NCBI GenBank assembly: GCA_965223855.1
Contig: CBDCXM010000009.1
Location: forward strand, 1,024,001-1,088,000
DNA: 64,000 nucleotides
Source: Candidatus Multivoradales bacterium
GTDB taxonomy: Bacteria; Acidobacteriota; Thermoanaerobaculia; Multivoradales; JAHEKO01
Direction of reading: 5' to 3'
The notes below the pieces were generated by a model, which was not told where the DNA came from, ran no database searches, and was given only the letters and a program-made list of their open reading frames with translations. The translations under genes and the position numbers were made by a program. Positions 35,485 through 55,012 of the stretch are shown here, one piece after another (the first letter of the stretch is position 1; the number at the start of each line of letters is the position of its first letter).

Positions 35485-36858
<1,374 letters not shown>

Positions 36859-39108: not shown

Positions 39109-39186
39109 CGCGACGAGCCTACTCTCTTCGGGTCGAAACCTCGTTGACTGGGCGGACGCCCCAGGTTCAGGTGTCACTCCAGCTTC

Positions 39187-39205
39187 AGGTGTCACAGGAA
39201 CACCG
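39187..39205 (+). repeat. Left-type end motif (variant), preceded by a partial copy at 39169-39177
   Basis: AGGTGTCACAGGAACACCG. Confidence 0.75.
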
Positions 39206-39310
39206 CAAGGAGTCGCCCGATCTCGTGGGCTCGACGCCACCTTCGCTGGGGAGATAGTGCCGTAGCGTTAATGCAAGGATGAGGATCGTCCCTCCGTCTG
39301 TAGGGACGAG

Positions 39311-39592
39311 ATGGGCTACAGACTTCGCCACCTCCCCGGCCCTCGCCTCGTCGAGGTCACAGCCCGCGCTGTGCAGCGTCGCTTCCTGCTACGGCCCTCT
39401 GCCAAGGTCAACGCCATCATCATCGGCGCCCTGGCCCGTGCTCAACGCAAGTACGGAATGAAGGTCTGCTACTGCGTCTACCTCTCGAACCACGCCCACC
39501 TGCTGCTGTGGCCCGACGACTCGAAGCAGCTCGCCGACTTCATGCGCTACGCCCACTCGAAGATCGCCAAGGAGCTAGGCCGGACCCACGAC
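39311..39592 (+). pseudogene. 3'-truncated RAYT-like HUH transposase
   Basis: First ~94 codons match the intact copies (YLSNHAHLL), then homology stops. Confidence 0.9.
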
Positions 39593-39637
39593 CCTTCAGA
39601 CGCAGCCCGAAGGGAGGCGAAGGGAAATGAGTCTGGG

Positions 39638-39688
39638 TCTTCAGTACTCCTGTCAGGCCTCCACCCGTCAGTATTCCTCTGAGGCCTC
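39638..39688 (+). repeat. Two degenerate right-type end motifs
   Basis: TCTTCAGTACTCCTGTCAGGCCTC and TCAGTATTCCTCTGAGGCCTC. Confidence 0.75.
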
Positions 39689-39711
39689 CTCCCCACCTCC
39701 CCAGAGGGACC

Positions 39712-40233
39712 TCACCCCTTCGGTCGATCGCCGATCCGGTCCAGCAGGCGACGCAGTCGAGGCAGAGCCGCGCGGTCCTTCTCGCGGCCGGCGGCTTCCT
39801 TCGAGCGAATGACGTCGGCGAGTGCCGCCACGGTTGCGCTCACTCCTTCGCCGACCTCGACGACCACCGCCTGTCGCTTCAGGTCGGGATAGCCGCGTGT
39901 GCCGCTGGGAACGAAGGTCAAATCGAGATCCCCGGCGGCGGTGGTGAGGTTGAGGATCGCGTCCGGCGAGAGGCTCCCCAGAAACTCGGCCGAACAATCG
40001 AACGGCAGGCCCTCGGCGACGCCGTCCGTGCGGATCCTCGCCGAGAGCTCCCCGAGCGCCCCGGCCAGTCGTCTCAGGTTGTCGGGTGAACGTTCCGGCA
40101 CCACGTCGAGATCGATCGTTACTCCGACATCGCCGTAGAGCACGGCGGCCATTCCGCCGATCAGGACGAAGCGAACCCCCGCAGCCTCGAGGACCCGGAG
40201 CATCCTCTCCGGGTCGAACTCACCCGCTGCCAT
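39712..40233 (-). CDS. Nucleotidyltransferase-fold protein (putative TA component)
   Basis: LIGGMAA...TIDLDVV...SKEAAGREKD. Confidence 0.8.
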   Translation of the reverse strand: MAAGEFDPERMLRVLEAAGVRFVLIGGMAAVLYGDVGVTIDLDVVPERSPDNLRRLAGALGELSARIRTDGVAEGLPFDCSAEFLGSLSPDAILNLTTAAGDLDLTFVPSGTRGYPDLKRQAVVVEVGEGVSATVAALADVIRSKEAAGREKDRAALPRLRRLLDRIGDRPKG

Positions 40234-40549
40234 GAAGGGCCGCCAACGATGCCCGCCCGCGCTGAACCAGGCGCGCCGCGCGGGCGGCCGCGCTCAACCG
40301 CTCGGCCGGTGTCAGTCTGAGAGTGCGCTCGAACATCGAATCGGTCCCCGGATCCGGCTCGCCGAGCGCGGCTTCGATCTCGAACCCGGCGGCACGCACC
40401 AACCGCTCGACCAACTCCGCTGCCGGCTGGCGCACCCCATTCTCGATCCGCGCCACGGTCGATGTGGCGGTTCCAGCCCGCCGGGCGAGGGCTGCCTGGG
40501 AGAGCCCGGCGCGGAGGCGCGCCTCGCGGACGAGAGAGGAGAGGCCCAT
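40220..40549 (-). CDS. XRE-family HTH protein (putative antitoxin)
   Basis: GLSQAALARRAGT...VARIENG; LTPAERL; overlaps the downstream gene. Confidence 0.85.
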   Translation of the reverse strand: MGLSSLVREARLRAGLSQAALARRAGTATSTVARIENGVRQPAAELVERLVRAAGFEIEAALGEPDPGTDSMFERTLRLTPAERLSAAARAARLVQRGRASLAALHGSG

Positions 40550-40627
40550 AGCGAGGATGATAGCCGATTGGCGTCCATCGAGCCTCGAGTTGGACCACAA
40601 CCTCGGTCCGCTCGTAGTAGCGATCCA

Positions 40628-40653
40628 CTCTTCAGTATTCCTGAGAGGCCTCT
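40628..40653 (+). repeat. Right-type end motif
   Basis: CTCTTCAGTATTCCTGAGAGGCCTCT. Confidence 0.85.
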
Positions 40654-40799
40654 AATTCGGGCCTCCAATTCGGAGCTCAATTGTGCTTGGGGTTCGCAGG
40701 GAGCAGGCCTCCGATCGTCAGAGCTGGGGTGAACTCGGCGGCAAGCCGGCAGCATGGCCCGCTGCGATCTCGCTGATTCTCTGAGATAGCTCAGCGAGG

Positions 40800-40864
40800 G
40801 GCGGTTCCGGTTTCTCGACGGCGCTTCAGGAAACGCTCACCGCCATCGAGACATCGCGGCCTGG
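40800..40864 (+). repeat. About 65-bp direct repeat of 43504-43569
   Basis: GGCGGTTCCGGTTT.TCGACGGCGC.TTCAGGAAACGCTCACCGCCATCGAGACATCGCGGC.TGG; 2 mismatches and 1 indel. Confidence 0.9.
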
Positions 40865-41084
40865 GGAGGTGCGACGGCACCCGATCCGGCGAGCCACCAC
40901 CCAACCAAGTGATAGTCTCTTGAGCACAGGCAAGCCACTCAAGACCCCACGCCGAGGCCCATCGTCCGGGCGCCGTTCGAACTGCCCAGCCGACCGGAGC
41001 CAGAGGAACCGCGAGTCCAAGGCTCTCTCAGGCGGGACGCATCGGGCGCGGCAGCGACATCGTCGCGCACCCCGAGGAGACAGC

Positions 41085-41789
41085 ATGCCCGACCTGACGG
41101 CTAGGCGCTCCACCATTGTGATGGCAATGCTCCTGACGACGCTCCTGCTCGGAGCGCCGAGAGCCGCCCGAGCGTGGTGCGAGTTGAGTGATGGGAAGCA
41201 GTACAGAATCTTCCAACTGCGCACCGAGCTGATCCTCGATGCCTACGAGAGCAACGGCATCCGAAAGGACGGACGACGCAAGGACCACGCAGCCGTCTTG
41301 AGGCCTCCGAGAGGCATCAACGACGGGACCCAGGTTTGGGTCGCCGAGCGAGGATCGGCTCGTGGGAGGGGGCAATCCAATGCGGAGCTGGGCTGCACCC
41401 TCAAGCAGGCGAGCTCGGTAGACGAAGACCGCGGCTATCTGGACGCCTACAGCACTTCATATGACGACCACATGGTCGTGACCAGGCGGAGGCAGTTTCC
41501 CGACGAGAACTGCAGCGTCCCTTGCCTCGGCCATCATCCCAGCCAGGTTTGGGACATCCAGCGCAGCCACAGGCGGCGCCCTCGCGGCTTCGACGGATGC
41601 TCTGTTTATTCCGTGCAGCAGTTCTCGTCCAGTCGATGGTTGGATGCCTATCTCTATCCCAACAACGACGGGCAGGTCGTCACGAGGCGCTTTGTGCGCA
41701 ACGAGCAGAAGCCCGACGGCGAGAACCAACATGAGCGACAGCTGTGGCTCTTCTGTGGTCGAACCGAGGGTCCGCGCTCTTCGAACTGA
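41085..41789 (+). CDS. Secreted ricin-B / beta-trefoil-like protein
   Basis: Signal peptide; three repeats of Q....LDAY....VVTR....Q.W. Confidence 0.65.
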   Translation: MPDLTARRSTIVMAMLLTTLLLGAPRAARAWCELSDGKQYRIFQLRTELILDAYESNGIRKDGRRKDHAAVLRPPRGINDGTQVWVAERGSARGRGQSNAELGCTLKQASSVDEDRGYLDAYSTSYDDHMVVTRRRQFPDENCSVPCLGHHPSQVWDIQRSHRRRPRGFDGCSVYSVQQFSSSRWLDAYLYPNNDGQVVTRRFVRNEQKPDGENQHERQLWLFCGRTEGPRSSN

Positions 41790-41868
41790 GTTCTGGCTGA
41801 GTGCCGAGATGAGTCGACACATCCTCTCTCGAGGTTCGGGCTCAGGACCTGCCGGCGACCCGGAGGTG

Positions 41869-42822
41869 TCAGTCGCTCTGTGTCAGAAACCGAACGATCT
41901 CCGGCAGCACCTCTTCGCCACGTTCGTACACAGCAGCGTGCCCAGCATCGGCCACGGGCAGGAAGCTGGCTCCCGGCATCGCCTGCAGAATCGATTCATG
42001 ATCCTCGAAGGGCAGCACACGATCGTCCCTTCCCCAGATCAAGAGGACCTCGCGCTCGTGACGCCCCACCGACGTGTACTTGTCGAGGATGTTCGGTGGT
42101 AGCTCTCGCCACGAAGAGAGGTGTGCCCGCCGCCAGCCTTTGAGCGAGATCTCCTGCTCGACGAGCCCAACGACCCTGTCCACATCGATCCTCTCGGTGC
42201 TCGAGAAGTTGATCTCGGGGAACCTCTCGACGATCTTCCGGCTCAGCAGCCTCAGAGCGAGATTGCCGAGGATGGGCACTCGGAAGAGCCGGAAGTCTCG
42301 CTCCACCGAGGGCGATGCACCAGCAGGTGAATGTAGGACCAATCGATCGACTCGATCGGGGAACCGCTCAGCGAAGGCGACCGCCACGCCGCCTCCCAAT
42401 GAGGCGGCCACCAGGTGAATCGGTTCCGTCACACCGACCGCCTCCAGGAGTTCACTTAGCTGGCGCAAGAAGAGGTCCTCGTTGTATCTGGCGGAAGGGC
42501 GATCAGAGAGCCAGCGGCCGTAGAGGTCGTAGCGCAGAACGCGCAGGCCCGCTTCCGACAAGACACCGGCTGCTTCGTCGAACCACCAGTAACCTCCGAT
42601 GTCGCCCGGGATCAGCACGACCGTTGGTGCGTCGGAGTCTCCTTCAAGATCGTAGTGAACGATGCCGTCGCTGAGTTCTACAAAGCTGCCCGGAGAGGCC
42701 GCTCTGACGCCTTCGTCGAGGACTACTTGTTCCGGATCGAGAAGTTGGAGCCCGAGCATGATGATTAGGGCAATAGAGACCGCTGCGGCGCCGACGGTCC
42801 GAGGCAGCGGCACTCTAATCAT
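41869..42822 (-). CDS. Alpha/beta hydrolase with N-terminal anchor
   Basis: YDLYGRWLSD, AASLGG nucleophile elbow, WGRDD, DAGH. Confidence 0.88.
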   Translation of the reverse strand: MIRVPLPRTVGAAAVSIALIIMLGLQLLDPEQVVLDEGVRAASPGSFVELSDGIVHYDLEGDSDAPTVVLIPGDIGGYWWFDEAAGVLSEAGLRVLRYDLYGRWLSDRPSARYNEDLFLRQLSELLEAVGVTEPIHLVAASLGGGVAVAFAERFPDRVDRLVLHSPAGASPSVERDFRLFRVPILGNLALRLLSRKIVERFPEINFSSTERIDVDRVVGLVEQEISLKGWRRAHLSSWRELPPNILDKYTSVGRHEREVLLIWGRDDRVLPFEDHESILQAMPGASFLPVADAGHAAVYERGEEVLPEIVRFLTQSD

Positions 42823-43372
42823 CCCCGGACAAGGCGCTCCACCCCAGCCTGCGAAGGACGTAGAAGTAGCGAGCCAAGAGCAGAGCGAGGACCGGAAGCA
42901 TCGCGAAGTTCACCCAGGGGAAGCGATCGATCGCGGCGGCGGCGGCGAGCAGAACAGCGACTGCGATGGCAGCCAGAGGAAGGAATACACGGTTCTTCAG
43001 CGTCAGGTTCCAGAGCTGCTGCAAGACCGGAATAGCGGCCACCGTCAGATAGAAACGCTGCCACTGCTCGGTTCCAGCTCTACCAATGTCCAGGTATCCG
43101 AGGAAGAAGAAGGCCAGAAACAGCAACACGATCTCGCCAAGGTCGAGAAGGAACGGCACTGCGCCATAGCTTCCTGGAGGTCGTGCCTCTGTTCGCAAGT
43201 AGGAAGCACTGAAGAAGGCGACCAGGACGAGGCCGAAGTAGAGAGAAGTGTCGGCAGCGGCGCTGGCCAAGTCCGGGTGGTTGGCCGCCTTGTGAATCCA
43301 CAGCACAAGGCCGGTGCCGAGAACCGCCGGGTAGTACAGGGAGTGCATGAGCACTCGGTAGGAAGTGGACAT
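42815..43372 (-). CDS. Multi-pass membrane protein
   Basis: About 6 hydrophobic segments; overlaps the hydrolase start. Confidence 0.7.
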   Translation of the reverse strand: MSTSYRVLMHSLYYPAVLGTGLVLWIHKAANHPDLASAAADTSLYFGLVLVAFFSASYLRTEARPPGSYGAVPFLLDLGEIVLLFLAFFFLGYLDIGRAGTEQWQRFYLTVAAIPVLQQLWNLTLKNRVFLPLAAIAVAVLLAAAAAIDRFPWVNFAMLPVLALLLARYFYVLRRLGWSALSGDD

Positions 43373-43472
43373 CTGGGGCGGATCTTAGCCGCAGGAATGC
43401 GGTTCCGACTTGGTTTGAGCCTCGGTTCTAGGGAATCGTCGCGCTCCACGCCGAGGTGTCGCCCGCTGGTTC

Positions 43473-43491
43473 AGGTGCCACAGGAATCCTG
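43473..43491 (+). repeat. Left-type end motif (variant)
   Basis: AGGTGCCACAGGAATCCTG. Confidence 0.7.
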
Positions 43492-43541
43492 CTGGCAGCC
43501 ACTGGCGGTTCCGGTTTTTCGACGGCGCCTTCAGGAAACGC

Positions 43542-43919
43542 TCACCGCCATCGAGACATCGCGGCTTGGTAGAGGCTCTTCTGTCTTGCAGGATCGTCCT
43601 GAATCTCCAGGTGGAGGTCGAAGAGGTCGAGCAACCGGCCGTCTTCCGTCATCACGGTGCCCTCCTCCTCACCAGCCGACCGGACGCCGAACCATGCCTG
43701 GAGCATGCCGGCCACTTCCCGGTCGCCAACTCTGACGAGTTCTAGGAAGTCGGAGAATCTGAGAGCGTAGCCCGTATCGGGGATCACAGTGTCGGCCTTT
43801 ACCTGTGGGATAGTGCTGACGCCGCACTGCGGGCAGTTCATCTCACGACCAAGCGCGTTGTAGGGCAGCTGGTAGCCGGTAGCGCAGCTAGGGCAGGTGA
43901 CCTCGATCAGGGGAGTCAA
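43542..43919 (-). CDS. Putative immunity protein with N-terminal zinc ribbon
   Basis: CPSC...CPQC; overlaps the RHS toxin stop by 4 nt. Confidence 0.6.
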   Translation of the reverse strand: MTPLIEVTCPSCATGYQLPYNALGREMNCPQCGVSTIPQVKADTVIPDTGYALRFSDFLELVRVGDREVAGMLQAWFGVRSAGEEEGTVMTEDGRLLDLFDLHLEIQDDPARQKSLYQAAMSRWR

Positions 43920-45562
43920 GGGATGGGCTCCAAGTAGCCGGCATCGACGAGCTGTTCGACCGATTGGTCGAAGTAGTACTGTAGCGCCCCTCCTCTGGCT
44001 CCGAATTCTGGTACTGGAGCGGCCGGGCCGGCTTCGGCCTCGAATGCGCGCACGACTCGATACTGAGAGTAGGCCAAGTCCTCAGAGCCGACCGGTAGTC
44101 CCAGATCAGAGACCGATGCGCCGGGAGGAGCGGCATATCGGCCGCTGGGAGGGCCATACCGCGCGACCACCGTACCCTCAGACACGGAAGTGCGCACGCT
44201 GGAGGCGAACCCCCTGTTAGGGGGATAGGGCAAGTCACGAGCTGAGACAAATCTGCCCGTCTCGAGGTCTCTGTATCGGCTCGCGCGAGAATCGAAGATG
44301 AAGCGGGCGTCGCTAGCCGAGGGCAACCGGGGTAGCCCGCTTGTCATGGGGGGGCTCAGGCCCTCCCTTGCCTTAGAGACCAAACGCTTGGTTGCGCCGC
44401 CAAGAAACAAGGCCTCCAACATCACCTCCGTGCTGTTGGCAGCCAGCTCGACCCTCTCCCGTTCGCTGCCGTAGAACGCCGTGTCCAACGCCTGCCGGGC
44501 CATTCCGGACGGGATCTCGACGACAGCCCGGAGGCCTCCCTGCGGATCCTCGGCGATGATGCGGCCGAGTTGGTGGGCCGACTGCTCGATGGTCATCGCC
44601 AGTTCGCCCAGTTCCTCGTCCGCCTCCTGGCGCAGGCGGTGGTCCGGGGGAAGCGCTTCCGTCACGATCATGTTGGCCGCAAAGTTCGCGGCGTTGACGC
44701 CCCGCTGCAGCAGGCCGAGAACGCCAGCGTTGATAGCGCGGCTGGCTGCATCGCCGATCACCGCTCCCGAGACTCCCTGATCGACTTCCCCCGCAAGCAC
44801 CGCTTCGCGCTCCTCGGCGAGGTTCCTGGCGAGCTCGACCAGCTCCTGGATTTCCCCGCTCGGGTCCACCCACACGGTCGGATTCGAGTAGGCGTAGAGA
44901 TAGCGATGGAGACTGCCCGGCGTGGTGGGAGTCCCCAGCTGGGGATCCTCCGTGAGAAACCTCCCCACCGCAGGGTCGTAGCGACGGGCACGGGCGTAGT
45001 AGCCCCCCATCTCTGCGTCATGCCGATAGCCCGTGAACCCGTAGGTGTCCGGGAGCGTCCCCTGGACCTGCTCCCGCACGTTGCCCCAGGCGTCGTACTG
45101 CTTGTAGCTGTCGACCGACCCGTCCGGCCTGGAGATCTGGGTGGGTGAGCCGAGCGCGTCCTGCTGGTAGTAGCCCGCGTTCCCGCCACTCTCGACCGAG
45201 AAGGGACCTCCCGGTCCGTGGTGGTAGCGAGCGACTGTTGCCCCCGAGTCGTCGGTCTCGAGCAAGAGCAGCTCGTCGTCGTAGACGAAGTTGCGACCTC
45301 CAGCGGGCGTGACCTTGCGGACGAGGCGACCCTGATAGTCGTAGTAGTAGCGAGCCAGCGTCGTACCGGCGTCGTCCGTGATCTGAATCAGCCGGTCTCG
45401 GGCGTCGTAGGCGAAATGTGTGGTTTCGCCGTCGATCGTCCGCGACGTCTGGTTCCCGTTGCCGTCGTACGTGTAGGTCACGTCGGCCGTCTGACCGGCA
45501 GCCGCGACGGCATGGAGGAGAGCGATGAGCAGCGTCTGCCGCAGCCACAATCGGTAGCGCAC
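43916..45562 (-). CDS. Short RHS-repeat polymorphic toxin with C-terminal TNT (NAD+ glycohydrolase) domain
   Basis: YD repeats, GFTG...YYARARRYDPAVGRF, NPTVWVDPSG; C-terminal YPPNRGF...ARYG..SGRYAAP...GGALQY...LVDAGYL. Confidence 0.85.
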   Translation of the reverse strand: MRYRLWLRQTLLIALLHAVAAAGQTADVTYTYDGNGNQTSRTIDGETTHFAYDARDRLIQITDDAGTTLARYYYDYQGRLVRKVTPAGGRNFVYDDELLLLETDDSGATVARYHHGPGGPFSVESGGNAGYYQQDALGSPTQISRPDGSVDSYKQYDAWGNVREQVQGTLPDTYGFTGYRHDAEMGGYYARARRYDPAVGRFLTEDPQLGTPTTPGSLHRYLYAYSNPTVWVDPSGEIQELVELARNLAEEREAVLAGEVDQGVSGAVIGDAASRAINAGVLGLLQRGVNAANFAANMIVTEALPPDHRLRQEADEELGELAMTIEQSAHQLGRIIAEDPQGGLRAVVEIPSGMARQALDTAFYGSERERVELAANSTEVMLEALFLGGATKRLVSKAREGLSPPMTSGLPRLPSASDARFIFDSRASRYRDLETGRFVSARDLPYPPNRGFASSVRTSVSEGTVVARYGPPSGRYAAPPGASVSDLGLPVGSEDLAYSQYRVVRAFEAEAGPAAPVPEFGARGGALQYYFDQSVEQLVDAGYLEPIP

Positions 45563-48893: not shown

Positions 48894-48899
48894 GCGGAG

Positions 48900-48929: not shown

Positions 48930-48979
48930 GATCGAGAGCCTCTCGGCGAGGCCGCGACCTGGATCTCGCGGAAAAGGGG

Positions 48980-49004
48980 CTCTTCAGCGTTCCTGTGAGG
49001 CCTC
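48980..49004 (+). repeat. Right-type end motif (variant)
   Basis: CTCTTCAGCGTTCCTGTGAGGCCTC. Confidence 0.8.
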
Positions 49005-49032
49005 GATCTGCCTCTATCTCGTCTATCTCGAC

Positions 49033-49058
49033 CTCTCTCTCTCTCTCTCTCTCTCTCT
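49033..49058. repeat. (CT)13 dinucleotide microsatellite
   Basis: Read directly from the sequence. Confidence 0.9.
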
Positions 49059-49074
49059 GAGACCCGCCAGGCCG

Positions 49075-50154
49075 TCAAGGCAGAGTCGAGGACCACGCCG
49101 AGGTATCGCCGCTCTCGAAGCCGTCGGCGAAGATGTCGGTCTCGATGACCGCCAGTTCGATGAAGCGCGCGCTGACCCCACTGATCTTCGTATCGACCAG
49201 AGCTCCCGCGGTGTTGATCTCGAAGACGCCGTCGCCGTTGGTGACCAGCAGATTGCCGTTCGGGAGCGGATAGACCCCGCGAAGCCCGCCGAGCCCGGCC
49301 GGTACGATCGTGTCGAGCAGCGCCCCCGTCGCGTCGTAGACGAGGACCCCGGCCTGCGCACCCGAGAAATTGGCGACGTAGACGGAAGCGACGCCGGGCG
49401 CGGTCACACCTTCCACGACGTGAACCTGCTCCGGGAAGTTGTCGACCGCTGCGAACACGGAGGCACTGGCTCCACAAGCCGTAGAGGCGAGCACCGCGTC
49501 GACGTCGATGTCGGTGATCAGCGCCACCGAGAGGTCGACGCGAATGTTGACGTCGAACGGACTGTCGAGGCCCTGTGCGGCTGCCCAGCAGTCGAAGTCG
49601 TACGTCCCATCCACCTCGAAGGAGGGCACGGTCTGGGTGTTGCCGGACGTGGCGAGGTAGTTGTCACCGAACGGATTGAGCTCGAAGCCGCGGGCGTTGT
49701 CGTAGACGGAGGTGTTGACCCCGCCGGCCGGCGCGAAGAGCCCCAGCGGTGCCCCCGCAAGGTTGTACGCGAAGATGCCGTCGTTGAGTTGATCGGCAAC
49801 CAGGATGCGGTTGCCCTCGACACTCAGGATGGCGTTGATCGGCGTCGCGAGATCTCCGCTCGAAGGGACGAAGTCGGGATCGATCAGATCCCCTGTCGTC
49901 GCGTCGAACGCCATCACCCGATCGTTGCTCGACTCCGGGATCAGGAGGATCCCGCCACTCCCCAGCGCCTCCAGCGCTCGCGCGCGCCGTGCCGGGTCGG
50001 GTCGGGTCTCACGAGCCTCGGGTGCGTCCGGCAGCTCGAGGCCCGCCGCTTCCAGACTCTCGATCTCGGTCGCACGAGCAGTCTTATCGACCTCGCCCGC
50101 GACCACGTGAGGAGCCAAAAGCAGACTCAAGAAAACCACGCCGTTACGAGTCAT
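49075..50154 (-). CDS. Secreted beta-propeller-like protein with IFADGFESGDTSAWS tail (paralog of 2051-3130)
   Basis: Same length (359 aa) and colinear with 2051-3130. Confidence 0.85.
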   Translation of the reverse strand: MTRNGVVFLSLLLAPHVVAGEVDKTARATEIESLEAAGLELPDAPEARETRPDPARRARALEALGSGGILLIPESSNDRVMAFDATTGDLIDPDFVPSSGDLATPINAILSVEGNRILVADQLNDGIFAYNLAGAPLGLFAPAGGVNTSVYDNARGFELNPFGDNYLATSGNTQTVPSFEVDGTYDFDCWAAAQGLDSPFDVNIRVDLSVALITDIDVDAVLASTACGASASVFAAVDNFPEQVHVVEGVTAPGVASVYVANFSGAQAGVLVYDATGALLDTIVPAGLGGLRGVYPLPNGNLLVTNGDGVFEINTAGALVDTKISGVSARFIELAVIETDIFADGFESGDTSAWSSTLP

Positions 50155-50264
50155 AGTTCCCCCTGTCGTTCTGATGGATGGTGCCGGACAGTGTAGCTCA
50201 GCTCTTCGCACCGAAGCGGCGCGGCAGGAGCGCTTCTCCGCGGTCGCGGAGCGGAACCTCGATC

Positions 50265-50428
50265 GTGGATAGGCCGTTCCGAGTCGGCGACTGGACCGTC
50301 GATCCCGACCGGGGCATCGGTCGAGAGCTCGAGCGCCACCGCGTCGCTGAGCGCGTCGGCGCTCGCGGTTCTCACCGAGCTGGCGGCGCACGCGCTGGGG
50401 GAACGGTCGGGCCAAAGGAGCGGCCTAA
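50265..50428 (+). pseudogene. 5' fragment of a CadC/OmpR-type winged-helix regulator
   Basis: FRVGDWTVDPDRG then, across frameshifts, SLSASALAVLTELAAHA-GGTVGPKE; ends at a left-type motif. Confidence 0.5.
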
Positions 50429-50431
50429 GGT

Positions 50432-50583
50432 AGGTGTCACAGGAATACTGCAAGGATGAGGATCGGATCTCCGTCTGAAGAGACGAGATGGGCTACCGAC
50501 TTCGCCACCTTCCCGGCCCTCGCCTCGTCGAGGTCACGACCCGCGCCGTCCAGCGCCGCTTCCTGCTGCGGCCGTCGCCCAAG
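50432..50583 (+). pseudogene. Left-type end motif, leader and first 32 codons of the RAYT-like transposase
   Basis: AGGTGTCACAGGAATACTG; ATG 50488 MGYRLRHLPGPRLVEVTTRAVQRRFLLRPSPK, then unrelated sequence. Confidence 0.9.
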
Positions 50584-50776
50584 GGATGGCGCCGTTGGGC
50601 CTCTTTGCCCGGTTCTTCGGAATCCTGTGGGGCCTCCGTTCCGGGCCTCTGCTCCGGCTAGCGCCGACCTCCGCCCCGCGATCTCTCATGGACCGTCGAT
50701 CGTCAGCGGGCTACACTGCCTCTGAAGCCAGGCTCTTCAAGAGAACCGCCACAGACCGAGAAGGTGAGGTGCTCGA

Positions 50777-51493
50777 GTGAAATCGACTCCGGAAAGATAT
50801 CGCTTTGTGGGTCTCACCGTCGGACTCGCCGTCCTCGGGCTTCTCTCCTCGGGTGCCTCCGGCACTCCTGCCCGGGCGGAGGCGGTTGCCAAGGAGCGCC
50901 CGCCCGAGGAGACCAAGGCCGGACGCGCCAGGCCGGACAGGCAGCCAGTGGGGGTCCATTCTCTTGGCCAGAACGGTGGGGAGCTGGGAACCGGCACCGT
51001 GCAGTACGACCCTCCAGGTCCAGCGGACATCCTCCTGGCCGCCAACCTCAACTGGTTCGTTGGCAACCGGTTCGACACTCGCAATGGCAATCCGCTGAGT
51101 TCGGGCGTCGTGACGCAGATCGCCGCCTACTGGGGCCCGGCACCCACGGCGACCTACCCGGTCTGGGGCATCAAGAACGTCGCAAACACGCAGATCCTGC
51201 ACTTGACCTACGTGCCCGGGCAGGTGCCGCTTCAGTTCAACACGCTCAACGTCTCCTGGGCTGTGCCGTCGGTCTTCCTGGGTGGGCTCAGGATCGGCAA
51301 CGGAGGGTTTCCGTCGTCGGCCTACAGTGTCGGCGTGCGCTACTCGAGCTACAACAGCCAGGGCTTCCACGGGCTGGTGTTTGCGCAGAGCACCTCCGCG
51401 ACCTCTCAGATCGCCAGCGGCAACGCCATGTTCCGGGTCTCTGGAGATCTGGTCATTCCGGTCGAGTTGGTGGAGTTCGAGCTGGAACGCTGA
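50777..51493 (+). CDS. Secreted protein with C-terminal IPVELVEFELE motif
   Basis: Signal peptide; beta-rich body; terminal PVELxxF motif. Confidence 0.75.
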   Translation: MKSTPERYRFVGLTVGLAVLGLLSSGASGTPARAEAVAKERPPEETKAGRARPDRQPVGVHSLGQNGGELGTGTVQYDPPGPADILLAANLNWFVGNRFDTRNGNPLSSGVVTQIAAYWGPAPTATYPVWGIKNVANTQILHLTYVPGQVPLQFNTLNVSWAVPSVFLGGLRIGNGGFPSSAYSVGVRYSSYNSQGFHGLVFAQSTSATSQIASGNAMFRVSGDLVIPVELVEFELER

Positions 51494-51547
51494 CCGCGGT
51501 TCACGTCGGCCCCTGCAGCCGAGAGGCCGGCGTCAGGGAGTGCAGTC

Positions 51548-51751
51548 AGGTGTCACAGGAGTACCGCAGCTTCTCGGCCGTCACCTCGGCCTGCCGCTGA
51601 AGGGTCTCCTCCCGCACCCTGGCACTGAGGTCCTAGGCTGGGCGGGCCGCGCCGACGAACCACATGGAGACTCAAAACCCGAAGACCAGAAGCATCGGCA
51701 GCGCAATTAGTTTGCTCATCGCCCCGCGGAACAGGTGTCACAGGAACACTG
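51548..51751 (+). repeat. Two left-type end motifs (51548-51566 and 51733-51751)
   Basis: AGGTGTCACAGGAGTACCG and AGGTGTCACAGGAACACTG. Confidence 0.8.
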
Positions 51752-51767
51752 CAGGAGGGCGGGTGCG

Positions 51768-52139
51768 CTACGGAGCGGTCAGAACGGCGTCGGAGTAGGC
51801 CACCTCACACTCGGACCAGGTGTCGCACACGCCTGAGACCTCGACGCACAGGTCGAGGCAGGGCTTCTGGCGGAGATCGCAGCTCAGGCAGGTTTCCAGT
51901 GCATCCTCGCACTGATTGCTGAGTTCATCGCAGAACGCTCTGAAGGCCTGGAGGCTCCTGCGGTGCGGGCTCGATAGCTCCTCCGGAACCGGTGGCCGCT
52001 CGAAGTCTTCGTAGCCGTCCAGCTTCGCCTGGAGCTTCGCAGCCTCCCTCGGGAGGTCTGTGTCCTCAGCCTGTTGACAGCTCACACTGACAAGCGAGGC
52101 TCCAGCGAATGTCGCCAACACCAGGACTCGGGTTCGCAT
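51768..52139 (-). CDS. Small Cys-rich lipoprotein
   Basis: LVSVSC lipobox; 8 further Cys residues. Confidence 0.65.
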   Translation of the reverse strand: MRTRVLVLATFAGASLVSVSCQQAEDTDLPREAAKLQAKLDGYEDFERPPVPEELSSPHRRSLQAFRAFCDELSNQCEDALETCLSCDLRQKPCLDLCVEVSGVCDTWSECEVAYSDAVLTAP

Positions 52140-52279
52140 CTGGATCCTTCCTTCGATCTGGGCCACGCGCCGCCAGAGATGGCGGCGCCGGTAGATCTGC
52201 TGGCGCTCAGTCGGGGCGGTTTGTTACGCAAAGGGGCTGGAGTCGGACGCCCGCAGGGACAAGAGCTCGGTTACACGGG

Positions 52280-53461
52280 CTACCGATACCAGATCGCTTG
52301 ATGCCGCTCGGAGCCTCTGACATCGGTATACGCTTGATACCAGACAAGCACAAAGCCGGCTCTGGCCAGCTCTGCACTCCTTCGACCGAAGGTGCGTGAG
52401 TCGAGCCCATGATGAGACCAGAAGACACGTTCATCATTCGAGGCGAATTCCGCACGGAACACACTCCTGCCAGATCGAACTCCTCCTTCGCATCTGGTAG
52501 GTACCCAGCCCGAATCAACGGCTTCTTCGAAGACGGCCTGGTACGCCTGGGAGGAGAGCCAGGGAGTGACCCATGCTTGGCTAGTTTCCTGGGCATCGTA
52601 ATTTGGGAATGCTGCCGTGGAGCTGCCGACGCTGTCTCCCTCCTGCCCTGGATACTGTTCGTTGTCGAGATCGAGCTCAGCGTGACTGGGAGGAACGATC
52701 GAGGTGATTACCAGGGAGATATCCGTTGCGAGAACCCAGCCCTTTGGGCCCCCGGAGACGCGCACCTCGAACCAGCCTTTGTCGAGACGAACGATCTCCA
52801 GCGAGGCCCCCTGCCTAAGGGCTCTAACCGAAGGGTAGCTGGTCGCTGGTCCCCGAAAGAGGTGGGTGCCCTGATTACGGACACTCCCGCGCACATGACC
52901 GATCGGGGTGGAGGCCCTTCCGGACGAGTCGATTTCCCAGATCCTAGACTGAGAAACTCGGCCTATTCCGCGGCTTCGTCCGAAGCCAACATCCTCGAAG
53001 AGCGTTCCGTTTCGGCCAAGGGCGCCAACCCGACGCCCGCGATGGAAGATGACACCCGTCGAGTCGATGCGGACCGAGGCCCTGATGGTGCCGCGTTGCG
53101 TGATCTTGTCGAGTGTCGCGCTCAAGCGAGTAGCCCTTGGCTGCAGACTACTGCCAGGCTGTTGCGCCCTCATCCGTGGTGGCGCGATGCCGCGCCCTCG
53201 GAGGCTGCCCCCTCCTCGAAGACCTCCGGAGCCCCCTGCTGATGAACCGCCGCGAACTGCGCTGCCGGCGCCACCGCCCCTGGGCACTGCTCCAACTACT
53301 CCGCCTCGCGCAATGCCGGCTGCGCCTCCGCGCGCGAGAGCAGAAGCTGCTGCACCCGCAGCCGCACCTCCGCCTCTCGAATGAAGCCCCTCGGCCGAAG
53401 CGATCGAGAGAATCGGCAGTAGCGTAAGCGCTGAGAGTCGATCTCGATTCAAGAAGGGCAT
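52280..53461 (-). CDS. Secreted protein: Gly-rich region, bacterial SH3 domain and C-terminal tandem-repeat domain
   Basis: FRGPATSYPSV...GWFEV...GWV (SH3b); LSSQAYQAVF...SHHGLD...QAIW repeats. Confidence 0.65.
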   Translation of the reverse strand: MPFLNRDRLSALTLLPILSIASAEGLHSRGGGAAAGAAASALARGGAAGIARGGVVGAVPRGGGAGSAVRGGSSAGGSGGLRGGGSLRGRGIAPPRMRAQQPGSSLQPRATRLSATLDKITQRGTIRASVRIDSTGVIFHRGRRVGALGRNGTLFEDVGFGRSRGIGRVSQSRIWEIDSSGRASTPIGHVRGSVRNQGTHLFRGPATSYPSVRALRQGASLEIVRLDKGWFEVRVSGGPKGWVLATDISLVITSIVPPSHAELDLDNEQYPGQEGDSVGSSTAAFPNYDAQETSQAWVTPWLSSQAYQAVFEEAVDSGWVPTRCEGGVRSGRSVFRAEFASNDERVFWSHHGLDSRTFGRRSAELARAGFVLVWYQAYTDVRGSERHQAIWYR

Positions 53462-53547
53462 AATCTGGGCAACGTCCGCTTCGAGACTACTATTCCAATG
53501 CAGTGGCAGCGGAGCCTTGAGCGAAGGCTGCGTCTCCCCAAAGGAGC

Positions 53548-54761
53548 AGGTGTCATAGGAATACTGCAAGGATGAGCATCGGATCTCCGTCTGAAGAGAC
53601 GAGATGGGTTACAGACTTCGCCACCTCGCCGGCCCCCGCCTCGTCGAGGTCACCGCTCGCGCTGTCCAGCGCCGCTTCCTGCTGCGGCCGTCCCCGAAGG
53701 TCAACGCCATCATCCTCGGCGCCCTAGCCCGAGCACAACGCAAGTACGGCATGAAGGTCTGCTACTGCGTCTACCTTTCGAACCACGGCCACCTGCTCCT
53801 GTGGCCCGACGACTCGAAGCAGCTCGCCGACTTCATGCGCTACGCCCACTCGAAGATCGCCAAGGAGCTCGGCCGGATCCACGACTGGCGCGGCGGAATC
53901 TTCGAGCGCCGCTACACCGCCATCGAGCTGAGCGAGGAAGAGACTCAGCCGGAGAAGCGGCTGCGGTACCTGCTGGCCCAAGGGTGCAAGGAGAGGCTCG
54001 TCGCATCCCCCAGGCACTGGCCGGGAGCCACGAGTCTGAGAGCACTGACCGACGGCCAAGAGCTCAGAGGCATCTGGATCGATCGCACGGCGCAGTACCG
54101 GGCCCGTGAGAACGGGCACCGAGCTCCTGAGCGGAACTTCACCGAGGAAGAGCGACTGGAGATCACCCCGCTGCCGACCTGGGGCGACCTGAGCGAATCA
54201 CAACGACAGGCGAAGGTCCGCTCGATCGTTCGGGAGATCGAAGCGGAGACCGAAGGCCACAAGGTGCTCGGTCGCAAGGCCATCCTCGAGCAGGATCCTC
54301 ATGGGCGGCCCTCCAGCCATCCTGAGCGCACTCCGGCGCCGAGGTTTCATGCGATCGCTCGGGGTGTGCGCAGAGCCCTGGAAGAGGCCTACCAGTGGTT
54401 CGTCATTGAGTACCGGCGCGCGGCCGAGGCGCTCCAAGCGGGCAAGCCCGCGGACTTCCCTCCAGGCTGCTTCCTGCCCGCTGGGCGCTACATCCCGCTG
54501 AGAATCTAGGCAGGTCGCGTCCCTCGAGTCGGACCGGACCGGTTGCCGCCGAGCGCGACGGCCGGTCGCGGCGTGGAGGGGCGTCGCACAACTGCAGCCG
54601 AGAGATTGCTCCGCGGCGATAGCCAGCTCGAGAACGTCCTCGACGCGGCGTTCTCGAGGCCTCCGAGTCGAAGGACATGCGCGATCGCAGCGGATGCGGT
54701 GCGAGCCGCAGCGCGCGTGTGGGCTCTTCAGTATTCCCTTCAGTATTCCTGTGAGGCCTCT
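53548..54761 (+). mobile_element. Complete ~1.2-kb unit: left motif, RAYT-like transposase copy 3 (CDS 53604-54509), 3' region, right motif
   Basis: AGGTGTCATAGGAATACTG at 53548; SNHGH HUH motif; right motif at 54724-54761; the two ends are inverted repeats of core TCACAGGAATACTG. Confidence 0.85.
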
Positions 54762-55012
54762 AGTCGGCTAGTCGGCTCTTCAGTATTCCCTTCAGTATTC
54801 CTGTGAGGCCTCTAGTCCGGGGGCCTCTAGTCCGGGGAGTGGGATCGGCGAGACGGCCTCTAGTCCGGGGGCCTCTAGTCCGGGGAGTGGGATCGGCGAG
54901 ACCAACGTGCGAGCCTCGACGCAAGCATGCGCTCTCCAGTATTCCTGTGAGGCCTCTACCTGGCGGAGCGGCGGCGCGAGTGTGCGCTCTTCAGTATTCC
55001 TGTGAGGCCTCT
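54722..55012 (+). repeat. Cluster of four right-type motifs with nested tandem duplications
   Basis: 44-bp unit at 54722 and 54774; 48-bp unit at 54807 and 54855; further motifs at 54932 and 54987. Confidence 0.9.

Follow-up and report, generated by a model that had tools for sequence, protein, structure and literature searches.

The 16-kb region described here, part of a 64,000-nucleotide stretch of DNA (the window) from an uncultured member of the Acidobacteriota, is probably a nest of TIRtron-like elements, mobile elements that have been little studied. The elements are of one subfamily, amplified locally in a single orientation, and lie in an accessory toxin island. The nest contains three full units (B, C, and E) and two mini-units with internal deletions (A and D), together with no fewer than seven ends that are solo or stuttered. 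The island lies downstream of the suf operon and also harbors an orphan Rhs toxin/immunity pair, toxin-antitoxin pairs, and secreted proteins. The original prediction of an integron-like gene-capture device is not supported by the sequence, in which the motifs appear as two inverted ends of an element and not as cassette joints. Coordinates are given in Table 1.

The unit is approximately 1.2 kb in length. It is composed, in order, of a left arm of approximately 25 nucleotides located about 55 nucleotides before the start codon, a 301-amino-acid transposase gene, a conserved hairpin just past the stop codon, and an inverted right arm about 225 nucleotides past the stop. Unit boundaries were set by alignment of five full and two truncated copies with different flanks. 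The same layout of arms and transposase surrounds approximately 20 copies in the genome as well as copies in relatives.

The left and right motifs represent a single sequence of approximately 25 nucleotides in its two complementary orientations, and are thus imperfect terminal inverted repeats (TIRs) of the unit. The two arms differ at only two to three bases (AGGTG-TCACAGG versus AGGCC-TCACAGG), and their inverted pairing is found in the repeat listing of the window (I3, I4, I7, I8, I24, and I25). The 14-mer TCACAGGAATACTG, with up to two mismatches, has 18 matches in the window against 0.11 expected, a count reached by none of 100 shuffles. Seven of these are on the + strand (left type) and 11 on the - strand (right type), and the earlier statement that no motif is inverted is wrong. 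The six left-type (family D9) and ten right-type motifs (families D5/D7) originally reported are all present in the repeat listing; that inventory lacked a right-type motif at 36840, a degenerate right end at approximately 50611-50645, and a left-type motif at 19630. Mapped across the genome, motif and transposase are not unique to this locus, and opposite-strand units exist; for 17 of 18 matches to the arm core (up to one mismatch), a transposase gene or a piece of one is found no more than 1.5 kb away. Neither arm is a palindromic hairpin, the left end having a value of -4 kcal/mol. Stutters of an end plus its flank are frequent across the family.

Three intact and two truncated transposases, all on the + strand, were recovered as originally reported. 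A tblastn search with the product of 47006 returned 301-amino-acid frames at 45704-46606, 47006-47908, and 53604-54506 with 94-100% identity. Both truncated copies (A and D) are mini-elements that have lost internal sequence but retain their two ends. Within the nest, only element E has a canonical end on each side; it also contains a perfect 48-nucleotide tandem duplication at 54807-54902. For elements B and C, no + strand match to a canonical left end was found within two mismatches.

Table 1. Features of the nest and its surroundings (window coordinates).
Feature	Position	Strand	Details
Solo left-type end	19625-19655	+	AGGTGTCACAGGAATACTG with micro-stutter; 19.5 kb left of nest
sufS fragment	36711-36834	-	124 nt; 89.5% identical to 62425-62548, same orientation
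Solo right-type end	36835-36866	+	two mismatches in 14-mer core; adjoins sufS fragment
Mini-element A	39169-39690	+	stuttered left end (39169, 39187); two right ends (39642, 39669)
A, transposase fragment	39311-39592	+	aa 1-94 (tblastn)
Two-gene module	39712-40600	-	HTH antitoxin-like (126 aa) and weak nucleotidyltransferase-like (173 aa); between right ends 39669 and 40633
Solo right end	40628-40672	+	outer part stuttered; variant contig leaves reference at 40630
66-nt direct repeat (D17), copy a	40799-40864	+	copy b at 43503-43569; joint of population variant
Three genes	40869-43372		306 aa without assigned family, alpha/beta hydrolase, 185 aa without assigned family; present or absent in population
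Diverged solo left end	43473-43497	+	5 nt before copy b
Orphan RHS C-terminal fragment with TNT toxin domain (548 aa) and downstream gene (125 aa)	43542-45562	-	125-aa gene presumed immunity
Element B	45648-46853	+	degenerate left end; intact transposase 45704-46609; right end 46821-46853
Element C	46950-48152	+	degenerate left end; intact transposase 47006-47911; right end 48122-48152
C, conserved hairpin	~47930-47969
Doc toxin and weak RHH antitoxin	48310-48930	-	promoter region included
Solo right end	48980-49010	+	two mismatches
446-aa protein	49075-50415	-	76% identical to paralogue at 2050-3176; 3' tail is genus-wide repeat
Mini-element D	50432-50645	+	left end; transposase aa 1-32 (50488-50583)
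D, degenerate right end	~50611-50645		26/33 positions, by reading of sequence
238-aa protein	50777-51493	+	no family assigned; at least six paralogues in genome
Two solo left ends	51548-51757	+	51548-51572 and 51733-51757
132-aa gene and 429-aa SH3/BTRD1 protein	51768-53569	-
Element E	53548-55015	+	left end 53548; intact transposase 53604-54509; right ends 54741, 54793, 54937, 54992
Composite parse, unit 1	39187-40672		remnant A and HTH/NTase pair
Composite parse, unit 2	43473-46853		immunity/RHS-TNT pair and B
Composite parse, unit 3	46950-49010		C and Doc/RHH pair
Composite parse, unit 4	51548-55015		132-aa/SH3 pair and E

The 301-amino-acid protein has a predicted RAYT/IS200-type fold. The AF2 model (pLDDT 84.4) matches, over its N-terminal 150 or so residues, TnpA-REP 4er8 (E 1.2e-5), followed by the TnpAs of ISDra2, IS608, and IS200. 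The NCBIfam model REP_Tyr_transpos is matched with an E value of 2e-10 at profile positions 14-144 of 146, scoring 40.6 bits where the curated cut-off is 80. The IS200/IS605-type Pfam TnpA score is 18.7 bits, under the gathering threshold of 23. The HuH and Y-x3-Q motifs match those of ISDra2 TnpA in a profile alignment (2xm3, E 1.2e-3), and all 36 aligned homologues have H61-x-H63 and Y122. Profile matches, catalytic motifs, and fold match together bear out the HUH/RAYT-like assignment made originally. The C-terminal half of 150 residues is conserved, and no HTH/DnaA_C-type Pfam domain was found in it. The family comprises 909 clusters at 50% identity (E<=1e-30).

Two further complete units of the array's subfamily are encoded on the opposite strand, one at C9:995.9-997.1 kb, between a 1874-amino-acid RHS/immunity pair and a further RHS fragment, and one at C9:1818.9-1820.4 kb. 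Each of the other subfamilies has its own inverted arm on a GGTGCC...GAAT theme, and arm type follows transposase clade. Each array copy has its nearest relatives within the array (dS 0.39-0.48, versus 0.61-0.90 to the two outside copies). Co-oriented clusters also occur in G000 (C9:3179184/3183558), G024:C35, L070, and L071.

The array copies are 85-86% identical in DNA and are under purifying selection (dN/dS 0.06-0.13). The best pair in the genome is 95.3% identical, flanks included, and none is near-identical, which is unlike an active insertion sequence. The same dN/dS range holds among same-genome paralogues at dS 0.39-1.14. The genes of B and C are intact under this selection despite their degenerate left arms, which fits selection beyond self-mobilization. 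In another species of the genus (G004), a decayed copy, in which a stop stands in place of the catalytic Tyr codon, lies directly after sufU in the same relative orientation. A remnant at the same place in a second species suggests that the position was occupied long ago, an observation that also speaks for the TIRtron reading. These observations, together with the general description of RAYTs as domesticated (PMC5581495), would fit a domesticated RAYT-like nuclease whose paralogues are kept by the host for a role at cognate repeats, such as rearranging or regulating the toxin island, with the array formed by tandem duplication. That explanation is considered improbable, as the approximately 20 full, diverged copies in this 4.5-Mb genome, the copy number of 0 to 23 across 31 related genomes, the many public homologues standing alone on 1.1-1.3 kb contigs, and the existence of frameshifted, truncated, and nonsense copies are all IS-like. 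The repeats number 17-42 per subfamily, without REP-like dispersal.

The gene modules between the ends were originally given functional labels, several of which are backed by profiles: HTH antitoxin-like, alpha/beta hydrolase, RHS core with TNT, Doc, and SH3 with BTRD1. The nucleotidyltransferase (DUF6036, E 0.0056) and RHH antitoxin (E 0.0024) labels are weakly backed, while 'ricin-like', 'propeller', 'PVEL', and 'lipoprotein' have no Pfam or NCBIfam support. The 446-amino-acid protein has no family match. The window contains no integrase, as stated originally; Phage_integrase (PF00589) is absent from it, and the nearest of five in the genome is at C9:1292735.

Two sequence comparisons argue against gene capture at the motifs. 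The Doc module is a 610-nucleotide, 92.8% paralogue of window positions 15283-15892, which contain no motifs, and the homology stops 170 and 48 nucleotides short of the flanking motifs. The single well-supported presence/absence variant in the population lacks 40824-43528 (2705 bp) and is joined inside the 66-nucleotide direct repeat and not at a motif. The variant contigs, here and at 40630, come from the same sample as the assembly and have a depth of only 4-5. In neither comparison does a module boundary fall at a motif. The motifs still act as joining points, a part of the original prediction that fared better: homology of the sufS fragment stops precisely where the inner edge of a solo right end lies, and one variant contig leaves the reference at 40630, precisely at the inner edge of the right end there. 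These two breakpoints count against a TIRtron nest.

A second observation of this kind is the order of transposase, right end, convergent two-gene toxin/antidote module, and right end, which recurs at 39669-40633 and 48127-48985. Pure chance placement is not a sufficient explanation for this recurrence. A similar layout is present in G026 (L024), where a small gene and an RHS fragment lie between right ends, and L016 is similar.

The recurring order is consistent with passenger-carrying composites, a weaker form of the capture idea, in which outer left and right arms enclose a transposase (or remnant) and an antisense toxin/antidote pair, and pairs were moved or accreted through surrogate outer ends. 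The parse in Table 1 accommodates all arms in the span, and the two-gene module is antisense to the transposase in four of four cargo-bearing units. Distant outer arms of the right polarity are present at C2:176627 (-6.3 to -7.0 kb), L024, and L025, and the ends joined to foreign DNA are joined exactly at the end edge. This arrangement is nonetheless rather unlikely. The outer arms at C2:176627 surround a housekeeping Nqr/ApbE operon, and arms of opposite polarity also occur near copies. No unit was found twice: a tblastn search with 15 cargo proteins (genome and 63 loci) found no homologue beside another transposase, except RHS fragments. The Doc paralogue has no arms, its homology stopping before them, and the only clean indel uses the 66-nucleotide repeat.

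A false array, created by collapsing or chaining strain variants or repeated elements during assembly, is very improbable. More than one haplotype is present in the sample: between 39551 and 40530 contigs show 8-9 differences, there are two alternative joints, and short-read contigs break at the transposase copies. However, the three full copies are 14-15% apart in DNA and so are not collapsible duplicates. Independent short-read contigs from the same sample span unique junctions with 0 differences, namely 46651-47050 (B to C), 49106-50491, 50545-53607, 41607-44981, and 54873-56000, and the window lies inside a 3.2-Mb contig.

Under the preferred reading of a TIRtron-like nest, the transposase would nick single strands at the arms and rejoin them. 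The nest would grow, with its orientation kept, through reinsertion next to an end already present or through tandem duplication. Abortive nick-and-reseal may leave stuttered and solo ends, and now and then link foreign DNA to an end. The modules would be whichever island genes happen to lie between intergenic ends. We infer mobility of the element, since the data show neither a transposition event nor an empty site or circle junction.

The closest described kind, judged against the available portion of its published description, is the TIRYT/TIRtron (Di Nocera, De Gregorio and Rocco 2013, PMC3733652), a RAYT-like gene with TIRs and with solo TIRs in dimers and clusters. Quentin et al. (2018, PMC6006769) treat it as the same as TnpA-Y1 subclass 2.1, and an Acidobacteria-specific group has been noted. 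Shared features are a RAYT-like Y1/HUH gene with TIRs at fixed distances on both sides and no REP hairpins, solo TIRs occurring singly, in dimers, and in clusters, and a moderate copy number. In our own comparison, the outer arm GGTGTCAC fits the TIR consensus GGGGWSAS at seven of eight positions. The protein here is 301 amino acids, versus a subclass 2.1 median of 238, with NH[AC]H as its HuH motif and with Y-L-L-x-Q-G, versus Y-x3-N-P, as its Tyr motif; its C-terminal half gave no match to a Pfam domain of the HTH/DnaA_C type. There are approximately 20 copies per genome versus a mean of 1.9, and co-oriented nests do not appear in the available part of the TIRtron description (PMC3733652).

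A REPtron (RAYT/TnpA-REP with flanking REPs) is resembled in the best structural match (4er8), in the match to the NCBIfam RAYT model over its whole length, and in the bracketing of the gene by inverted copies of a presumed recognition sequence. It differs in the score below the curated cut-off, in arms that are not palindromic hairpins, in repeats that are not in hundreds of dispersed copies, and in a gene that is multi-copy here versus about single-copy. With the IS200/IS605 TnpAs (IS608, ISDra2, and IS200), the element shares the Y1/HUH fold, a Y-x3-Q motif aligned to ISDra2 Y132, and a small one-gene unit in many copies with truncated derivatives. The protein here is twice as large and carries an additional conserved domain at its C-terminus, the ends are TIRs versus distinct subterminal hairpins, and the copies are 70-95% identical versus about 99%. 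Orientation shows no replichore bias (8 of 14 copies), unlike the lagging-strand template targeting of IS608 and ISDra2 given in the available part of PMC6006769.

The sole resemblance to an integron (IntI, attI/attC) is that small co-oriented repeats separate small accessory modules. The window has no tyrosine recombinase, the repeats are transposon arms in two orientations, module boundaries lie off the repeats, and cargo genes are on both strands. IS91/ISCR elements and Helitrons are rolling-circle HUH elements that capture flanking genes by read-through to a surrogate end. They use Y2 or Rep-helicase enzymes and have dissimilar ori/ter ends. Read-through past an end is the model behind the capture idea, and the nest shows no sign of one-ended events. 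The Rhs elements of E. coli include orphan toxin/immunity modules with associated H-rpt/ISAs1. The element here is Y1/HUH and not a DDE insertion sequence, and only one module in the span is Rhs-derived; as in those loci, an orphan RHS C-terminal toxin and a small downstream gene adjoin a transposase unit.

The genome (G000) is 4.52 Mb in length with 68% GC, comprises 9 contigs, and carries the window inside contig C9. Its relatives in the public record are Thermoanaerobaculia (Acidobacteriota) MAGs. A tblastn search with the product of 47006-47908 recovered three intact 301-aa transposase frames, which share 94-100% identity with one another, and two fragments covering amino acids 1-94 and 1-32. 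All five are on the + strand, as in the original prediction, and the six left-type and ten right-type motifs named there correspond to repeat families D9 and D5/D7. The core 14-mer, TCACAGGAATACTG, occurs 18 times in the window with up to two mismatches against an expected 0.11, and none of 100 shuffles reached 18. The cluster of motifs and transposases is therefore real and far above chance.

In the outside-to-inside direction, the left arm reads AGGTGTCACAGGAATACTGCAGGAG and the right arm TAGAGGCCTCACAGGAATACTGAAGAG. The two form an imperfect terminal inverted repeat (TIR) of about 25 nucleotides and differ at a few bases (TG versus CC). Their inversion is also listed as inverted repeats I3, I4, I7, I8, I24, and I25. 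The earlier statement that no motif is inverted holds only in that all units are co-oriented; the left and right motifs are one sequence on opposite strands (7 on +, 11 on -).

An alignment of seven copies (five full, two truncated), the flanks of which are unrelated, set the unit limits. The unit is about 1.2 kb in length and is composed of the left arm, about 55 nucleotides, the ATG and gene, about 225 nucleotides of conserved 3’ sequence, and the right arm. The 16-kb nest contains three full units (B, C, and E), two mini-elements (A and D), and a number of solo ends.

Features of the nest and its surroundings, in window coordinates (L, left-type arm; R, right-type arm)
Feature	Strand	Arms or position	Content
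sufS fragment		36711-36834	Followed by R36840
Solo right end		R36840
M23 and S41 peptidase genes		37008-39240	Left neighbours of the nest
Mini-element A	+	L39169/39187; R39642, R39669	Transposase aa 1-94 (39311-39592)
HTH and NTase-like pair	-	Between A and R40633
Solo right end		R40633
66-nt repeat, copy a		40799-40864	Followed by three genes
Solo left end		L43473	After the three genes
66-nt repeat, copy b		43503-43569
Immunity-like gene and RHS-TNT fragment	-	Between copy b and B
Element B	+	Degenerate left arm; R46835	Transposase 45704
Element C	+	Degenerate left arm; R48127	Transposase 47006; 97-nt spacer after B
Doc and RHH pair	-	Between C and R48985	Homology 48321-48930
Solo right end		R48985
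446-aa gene	-	49075-50415	Between R48985 and D
Mini-element D	+	L50432; degenerate right arm ~50611-50645	Transposase aa 1-32 (50488-50583)
238-aa gene	+	50777-51493	After D
Solo left ends		L51548, L51733
132-aa gene and SH3/BTRD1 gene	-	Before E
Element E	+	L53548; four right arms reaching 55015	Transposase 53604
Low-GC block		55-62 kb	Right side of the nest, abutting sufU/sufS/sufD
Core matches, left (n=7)	+	19630, 39192, 43478, 50437, 51553, 51738, 53553
Core matches, right (n=11)	-	36840, 39642, 39669, 40633, 46835, 48127, 48985, 54741, 54793, 54937, 54992

Both truncated transposases keep arms at both ends and are therefore internally deleted mini-units; the degenerate right end of D had been overlooked in the first reading. 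Within the nest, canonical arms on both sides are confined to element E; for B and C, a search allowing two mismatches gave no core match on the + strand. The right-end array of element E includes a perfect 48-nucleotide tandem duplication at 54807-54902.

A 17-base-pair hairpin is located about 25 nucleotides after the stop codon and about 180 nucleotides inside the right end. It is kept in five of five subfamily copies, with two-sided changes at five pairs (columns 31/63, 34/60, 35/59, 40/54, and 43/51), and no T run follows it. The left-end consensus folds with a value of -4.1 kcal/mol and no compensatory pairs, and the left arm has no convincing fold.

The ends are often stuttered. Across the family, the outermost 5-6 nucleotides of the arm together with 8-12 nucleotides of flank are often in tandem, with the rest of the arm missing. 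Examples in the window are CCCCAGGTTCAGGTGTCAC / TCCAGCTTCAGGTGTCACAGG at 39159 and the repeated GGCCTCTAGTCCGGG at 54807; in the same-genus genome G002, GACCTCAAGCC is present three times ahead of an arm. The pattern GGTG[CT]C starts at least twice in the 200 nucleotides upstream of 14 of 40 copies (the pattern is narrow, and more are seen by eye). Solo and tandem arms are present in the window, at C9:1978286-1978686, and at G002 locus L036, where seven tandem, heavily stuttered left-type arms fall within 250 nucleotides (10464-10710) with no transposase gene adjoining.

The enzyme scores below the cut-offs of the existing families. Pfam Y1_Tnp (PF01797) gives 18.6-18.8 bits against a gathering cut-off of 23 (E ~2e-3), and NCBIfam REP_Tyr_transpos (NF047646) gives 40.2-42.9 bits against a cut-off of 80 (E 2e-10 to 4e-11), with positions 14-144 of its 146 covered. 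When 36 homologues were aligned, all of them had S59-N60-H61-x-H63 and Y122 unchanged, and Q126 was nearly invariant. The HuH motif of the family is NH[AC]H, and its Tyr motif is R-L-R-Y-L-L-x-Q-G (consensus R-L-R-Y-L-L-E-Q-G). A profile built from the family alignment matched ISDra2 TnpA (2xm3, E 1.2e-3) among solved chains, with HuH placed on HuH and Y122-x3-Q126 on the catalytic Y132 motif. An AlphaFold2 model of the 301-aa protein (pLDDT 84.4, pTM 0.75) has TnpA-REP (4er8_A) as its best Foldseek match (E 1.2e-5, TM 0.61 on target). Next come the transposases of ISDra2, IS200, and IS608, and every one of these matches involves the N-terminal ~120-150 residues. Foldseek gave 22 matches with E<=0.001, and 19 of the 20 listed are Y1 transposase chains. 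By its HuH motif, single Tyr, and modelled fold, the protein belongs to the HUH/Y1 superfamily, and the HUH/RAYT-like class originally assigned is upheld by catalytic motifs, profile, and fold alike. Placement relative to RAYT and IS200 TnpA was made by these same comparisons.

The C-terminal 150 residues are conserved family-wide, with W158, R161, P246-R247-F248, and F290-P292 invariant in the 36 homologues; this region matched nothing in the profile and fold comparisons of the protein. The protein has no Pfam match at E<=0.01 to Bac_DnaA_C, HTH_23, or HTH_28. Among 5359 candidate 90% clusters, 617 matched the family (E<=0.001); several are labelled ‘REP element-mobilizing transposase RayT’ by JGI, and many are on contigs of 1.1-1.3 kb. 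Matches to 50%-identity representatives number 8167 (E<=1e-3), 3498 (E<=1e-10), and 909 (E<=1e-30). The transposase family is large, undescribed, and RAYT-like.

The genome contains 20 full-length copies, one of them frameshifted, in addition to fragments. The copies sort into clades at 70-95% DNA identity, and the top pair shares 95.3% with flanks included. This pair (C4:7999-8896 and C9:92899-93795) is of another subfamily, aligns over 1.7 kb, and includes the frameshifted copy on C4; it is either a segmental duplication or a contig from this region that was left unplaced. The subfamily of the nest has two more complete units, one at C9:995.9-997.1 kb and one at C9:1818.9-1820.4 kb, both on the opposite strand. 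The clades have their own inverted arms on a common theme (GGTGCC-ACACGAATC, GGTGCC-GGGTGAATAGT, GGTGCC-AGGTGAATG, and AGGTGTC-ACAGGAATACTG), so arm and enzyme co-vary.

A 16-mer search with up to three mismatches gave 26 matches genome-wide. Twenty-two fall at five loci, with 15 in the window and two and five at the other two units; the remaining four have three mismatches each. Six arm cores have 17-42 matches each, mostly within 1.5 kb of a transposase gene, a distribution far from REP-like dispersal. The genome-wide map thus has motifs that mostly track transposase genes. Left arms are placed 50-115 nucleotides before the start codon and right arms about 215-300 nucleotides after the stop, and 20 of 27 copies scanned have both a proximal left and a proximal right arm with up to two mismatches. 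Among 31 genomes of the order, a count that takes in this genome and the unpublished G005, 26 have at least one copy (E<=1e-20), with 0-23 matches per genome. A contig scan with the family alignment identified 40 loci; at only two of them, L070 and L071, are two or more copies or fragments grouped within 10 kb. Metagenome matches to the arm RGGYSTCACAGGAATACTG were rejected as chance; they comprise 16 loci with GC of 0.37-0.63 and a transposase homologue in none.

The three full array copies share 85-86% DNA identity. Their dS is 0.39-0.48 among themselves; against the copies outside the array it rises to 0.61-0.83 (996-kb copy) and 0.88-0.90 (1819-kb copy). The array copies are therefore mutual nearest relatives, which points to local amplification. 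Among the five full subfamily copies, dN/dS is 0.060-0.132. The array copies are old, and the genes in B and C have stayed intact despite a decayed left arm. Intact genes of this kind would also be seen if the protein had taken on a domesticated function, which is judged improbable for a gene in so many copies.

Some 12 features of the window, each an independent unit or a solo end, share one orientation. IS608 and ISDra2 insert at the lagging-strand template (PMC6006769). A replichore bias was rejected as the source of the shared orientation: with replichores drawn from the cumulative GC skew of C9 (minimum 0.76 Mb, maximum 2.98 Mb), eight of 14 full C9 copies are on the leading strand and six on the lagging strand. 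Co-oriented clusters also occur at C9:3179184/3183558 and at L071; likewise, each of the four matches on contig C35 of the related genome G024 is on +, as is each of the three fragments at L070. Co-orientation could have come from insertion beside an existing end or from tandem duplication.

The original prediction treated the intervals as cassettes captured, integron-like, at polarised motifs. The modules themselves are bounded otherwise. A second copy of the Doc/RHH operon at 15283-15892 (610 nucleotides, 92.8% DNA and 92% protein identity) has no arm core match, and the homology in the nest stops 170 nucleotides from the end of R48127 and 48 nucleotides from R48985. The boundary of the Doc module is the operon with its promoter rather than the arms.

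Variant contigs were drawn only from the public runs of the source study, in which X1 and X2 are the same sample. One contig form (depth 4.2, shorter side 255 nucleotides) joins 40823 to 43529, omitting 2705 bp, with 37 nucleotides that fit both sides. The joint is inside the 66-nucleotide direct repeat, and the genome has just the two copies of it. Gain and loss of the three-gene module therefore run through this repeat, and solo L43473 goes along with the module. Fifteen cargo proteins were searched against the genome and 63 loci, and apart from RHS fragments no homologue adjoins another transposase copy. Distant outer left arms of the copy at C2:176627 enclose an ApbE/Nqr operon, which is housekeeping and not cassette-like. 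Together, the Doc paralogue, the 66-nucleotide joint, the cargo search, and the ApbE/Nqr enclosure argue against capture at the arms.

The arms can nonetheless be break-and-join points. A second contig form (depth 4.8, shorter side 71 nucleotides) has 31 nucleotides with an opposite-sense core in place of 40631-40854, and the point at which it leaves the reference coincides with the inner edge of R40633. In addition, the sufS fragment is an 89.5% copy of an internal sufS piece (62425-62548, 124 nucleotides, 25 kb apart), and the homology runs right up to the base that precedes solo R36840. The genuine sufS continues past this point with GGTGCC, the family arm start, and the 10 nucleotides preceding the fragment (CCCCAAGAGC) are those of the left-arm flank of the 1819-kb unit. 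Several candidate joints, with low depth or a short side, connect 55015 to 45719, 48151 to 46436, and 46690 to 54966. No L-R circle junction is present among the joints of the assembled contigs.

The initial reading is thus sustained for the ends as joining points and for the enzyme class, as well as for the lack of an integrase (PF00589 has five matches in the genome and none in C9:1024001-1088000). Capture at polarised motifs fails on the Doc homology, which falls short of the arms, and on the 2705-bp indel in the 66-nucleotide repeat, and the integron-like claim should be dropped.

Same-sample short-read contigs match the reference without differences at 46651-47050, 49106-50491, 50545-53607, 41607-44981, and 54873-56000. 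Because contigs of that sample agree across unique junctions and the full copies differ by 14-15%, a chained assembly artefact is unlikely, with the short-read contigs sharing the sample of the reference, and artefact receives next to no weight as an explanation of the array.

RAYT-like genes with TIRs in place of REPs have been named TIRYTs, and the elements TIRtrons (Di Nocera et al. 2013, PMC3733652), so the kind is already in print, although the term TIRYT is rare in the literature searched. In TIRtrons, many arms share GGGGWSAS, solo TIRs occur in dimers and clusters, and the Acidobacteria form a sharply defined group (PMC3733652). The present family likewise has a RAYT-like Y1 gene flanked by TIRs at a fixed distance and solo TIRs singly, in dimers, and in clusters, and its arm start GGTGTCAC fits GGGGWSAS at seven of eight positions. 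Most TIRYTs are in subclass 2.1 (Quentin et al. 2018, PMC6006769), which averages 1.9 copies and has a median of 238 aa; its proteins have a C-terminal HTH, HuH of NHVH or NH[YF]H, and Y-x3-N-P. The family differs in having 301 aa, NH[AC]H, Y-L-L-x-Q-G, about 20 copies, and no C-terminal HTH match; its motifs, length, C-terminal domain, and copy number match none of the 12 rows of Table 1 in that paper.

The family falls outside IS200/IS605, the classical RAYT/REP systems, and the integrons. It is filed here as working like a TIRtron, as a variant of that kind. IS200/IS605 copies within a genome average 99.4% identity (Table 1, PMC6006769), whereas the best pair here is at 95.3% and the array at 85-86%. 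Those elements have subterminal hairpins without TIRs, in contrast to the imperfect TIRs of about 25 nucleotides here, and the family falls under the Pfam Y1_Tnp gathering threshold. RAYTs are present at 1.3-1.8 copies per replicon (Bertels et al. 2017, PMC5581495), as against about 20 in this genome. The high-copy palindromic REPs of REPtrons (>100 per genome) are lacking, with arm cores at 17-42 each, the class 2 motif Y-x3-N-P (PMC6006769) is replaced by Y-L-L-x-Q-G, and the NF047646 cut-off is not reached. Unlike an integron, the array has no IntI-type tyrosine recombinase nearby, and its Doc homology and indel joint are off the arms, where integron cassettes are bounded exactly by their sites. 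No assay of TIR-flanked RAYT-like elements was found in the literature searched.

The nest is probably a locally amplified, co-oriented group of TIRtron-like elements, formed by nicking and rejoining at the arms, with the cargo between ends incidental. The mechanism proposed here builds on established HUH/Y1 knowledge (IS608, ISDra2, TnpA-REP) and takes the observed units, arms, fold, catalytic residues, copy structure, selection, co-orientation, and breakpoints as its starting point. The protein would bind its cognate arm, and Y122 would nick one strand at or next to the outer edge, with H61 and H63 holding the metal and the ends rejoined after the nick. Complete reactions would move or copy the unit, and reinsertion beside an existing arm would keep orientation and build the nest. 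Incomplete or repeated nicking and resealing could leave stutters and solo arms, and occasional joining of an arm to other single-stranded DNA could account for the sufS piece. Mini-units would arise by internal deletion. The toxin and TA genes would be usual island cargo that came by chance to lie between intergenic ends.

For this barely studied element type, 16 kb of the window preserve an unusually rich natural record, with full units and mini-units, ends that are solo or stuttered, a sufS-fused end, and segregating variants. The nest is a good substrate for defining where TIRtron-like enzymes cut and join, and it speaks to the question of whether RAYT-like enzymes can be genuine multi-copy transposons as opposed to domesticated single-copy genes.

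RHS genes are found beside other units as well. The 1874-aa RHS gene with its small downstream gene is within 40 nucleotides of the right arm of the 996-kb unit, and another RHS fragment is present beyond the left arm. The order at this locus (L078, C9:990000-1002000) is 1874-aa RHS, 87-aa gene, subfamily unit, orphan RHS fragment, and IS481-family transposase, an arrangement that resembles an array of Rhs orphans in the company of mobile elements of two types. The 548-aa RHS-TNT protein of the nest, 66 kb away, is an N-terminally short orphan with 53% identity to residues 1315-1526 of the 1874-aa RHS. In G026, from another family of the order, an RHS fragment and a small gene are between two right arms of a unit (L024). 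Such neighbours would fit composite, passenger-carrying units, a reading that appears rather unlikely beside the evidence against capture at the arms; were it right, toxin/immunity modules would have a further, HUH-based route of movement. Quite unlikely, too, is a fuller form, in which the family builds co-oriented nests by nicking and rejoining, assembles composites of transposase and antisense toxin/antidote modules (Rhs-CT/immunity, Doc/RHH, HTH/NTase), and moves cargo with outer surrogate arms. If true, it would mean HUH-driven accretion and shuffling of polymorphic-toxin and TA modules beside Rhs loci.

The M23 and S41 peptidase genes lack conservation within the genus, and for S41 none of four same-genus genomes has an orthologue (best E 9.4e-4). 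When 36500-56000 was compared with these genomes at the DNA level, the only matches were transposase genes, the sufS fragment, a tail repeat of about 60 nucleotides, and a few short pieces. At that level none of the four shares a cargo gene with the nest, so the whole stretch is accessory. The sufS contigs of G002 and G004 end 1.8 kb and 0.45 kb after sufU, respectively, and no empty site is seen in them. In G002 the sequence after sufU is unrelated DNA. In G004 a decayed family copy (L014:6990-7295) is positioned just after sufU in the same relative orientation. Its catalytic Tyr codon is replaced by the stop TAA (…LSTLR*VLEQG…), and the contig ends inside this copy. G014 has no synteny at the suf-adjacent locus. 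No tRNA that could serve as an integration site was identified by ARAGORN in the window or in L013-L015.

The low-GC block (55000-61800) has a GC content of 57-61% compared with ~66-68% elsewhere. It encodes a 904-aa protein that matches no family, as well as a P-loop ATPase of 388 aa (ORC-CDC6-like, E 7e-9; Sll1717 family, E 3e-4). The block may be a foreign islet, for defence or otherwise. The 446-aa secreted-type protein is 76% identical, over 49074-50200, to a paralogue near the left end of the window (2050-3176). The 3’ end of its gene (49071-49150) contains ~45-80 nucleotides present in dozens of copies at 81-95% identity in all four same-genus genomes, adjoins a (CT)n run at 49032-49060, and has a contig depth of 43-46 against ~5. 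This tail is probably a shared C-terminal sorting or anchor signal. The 238-aa protein matches no Pfam or NCBIfam family and has at least six paralogues in the genome at 34-51% identity.
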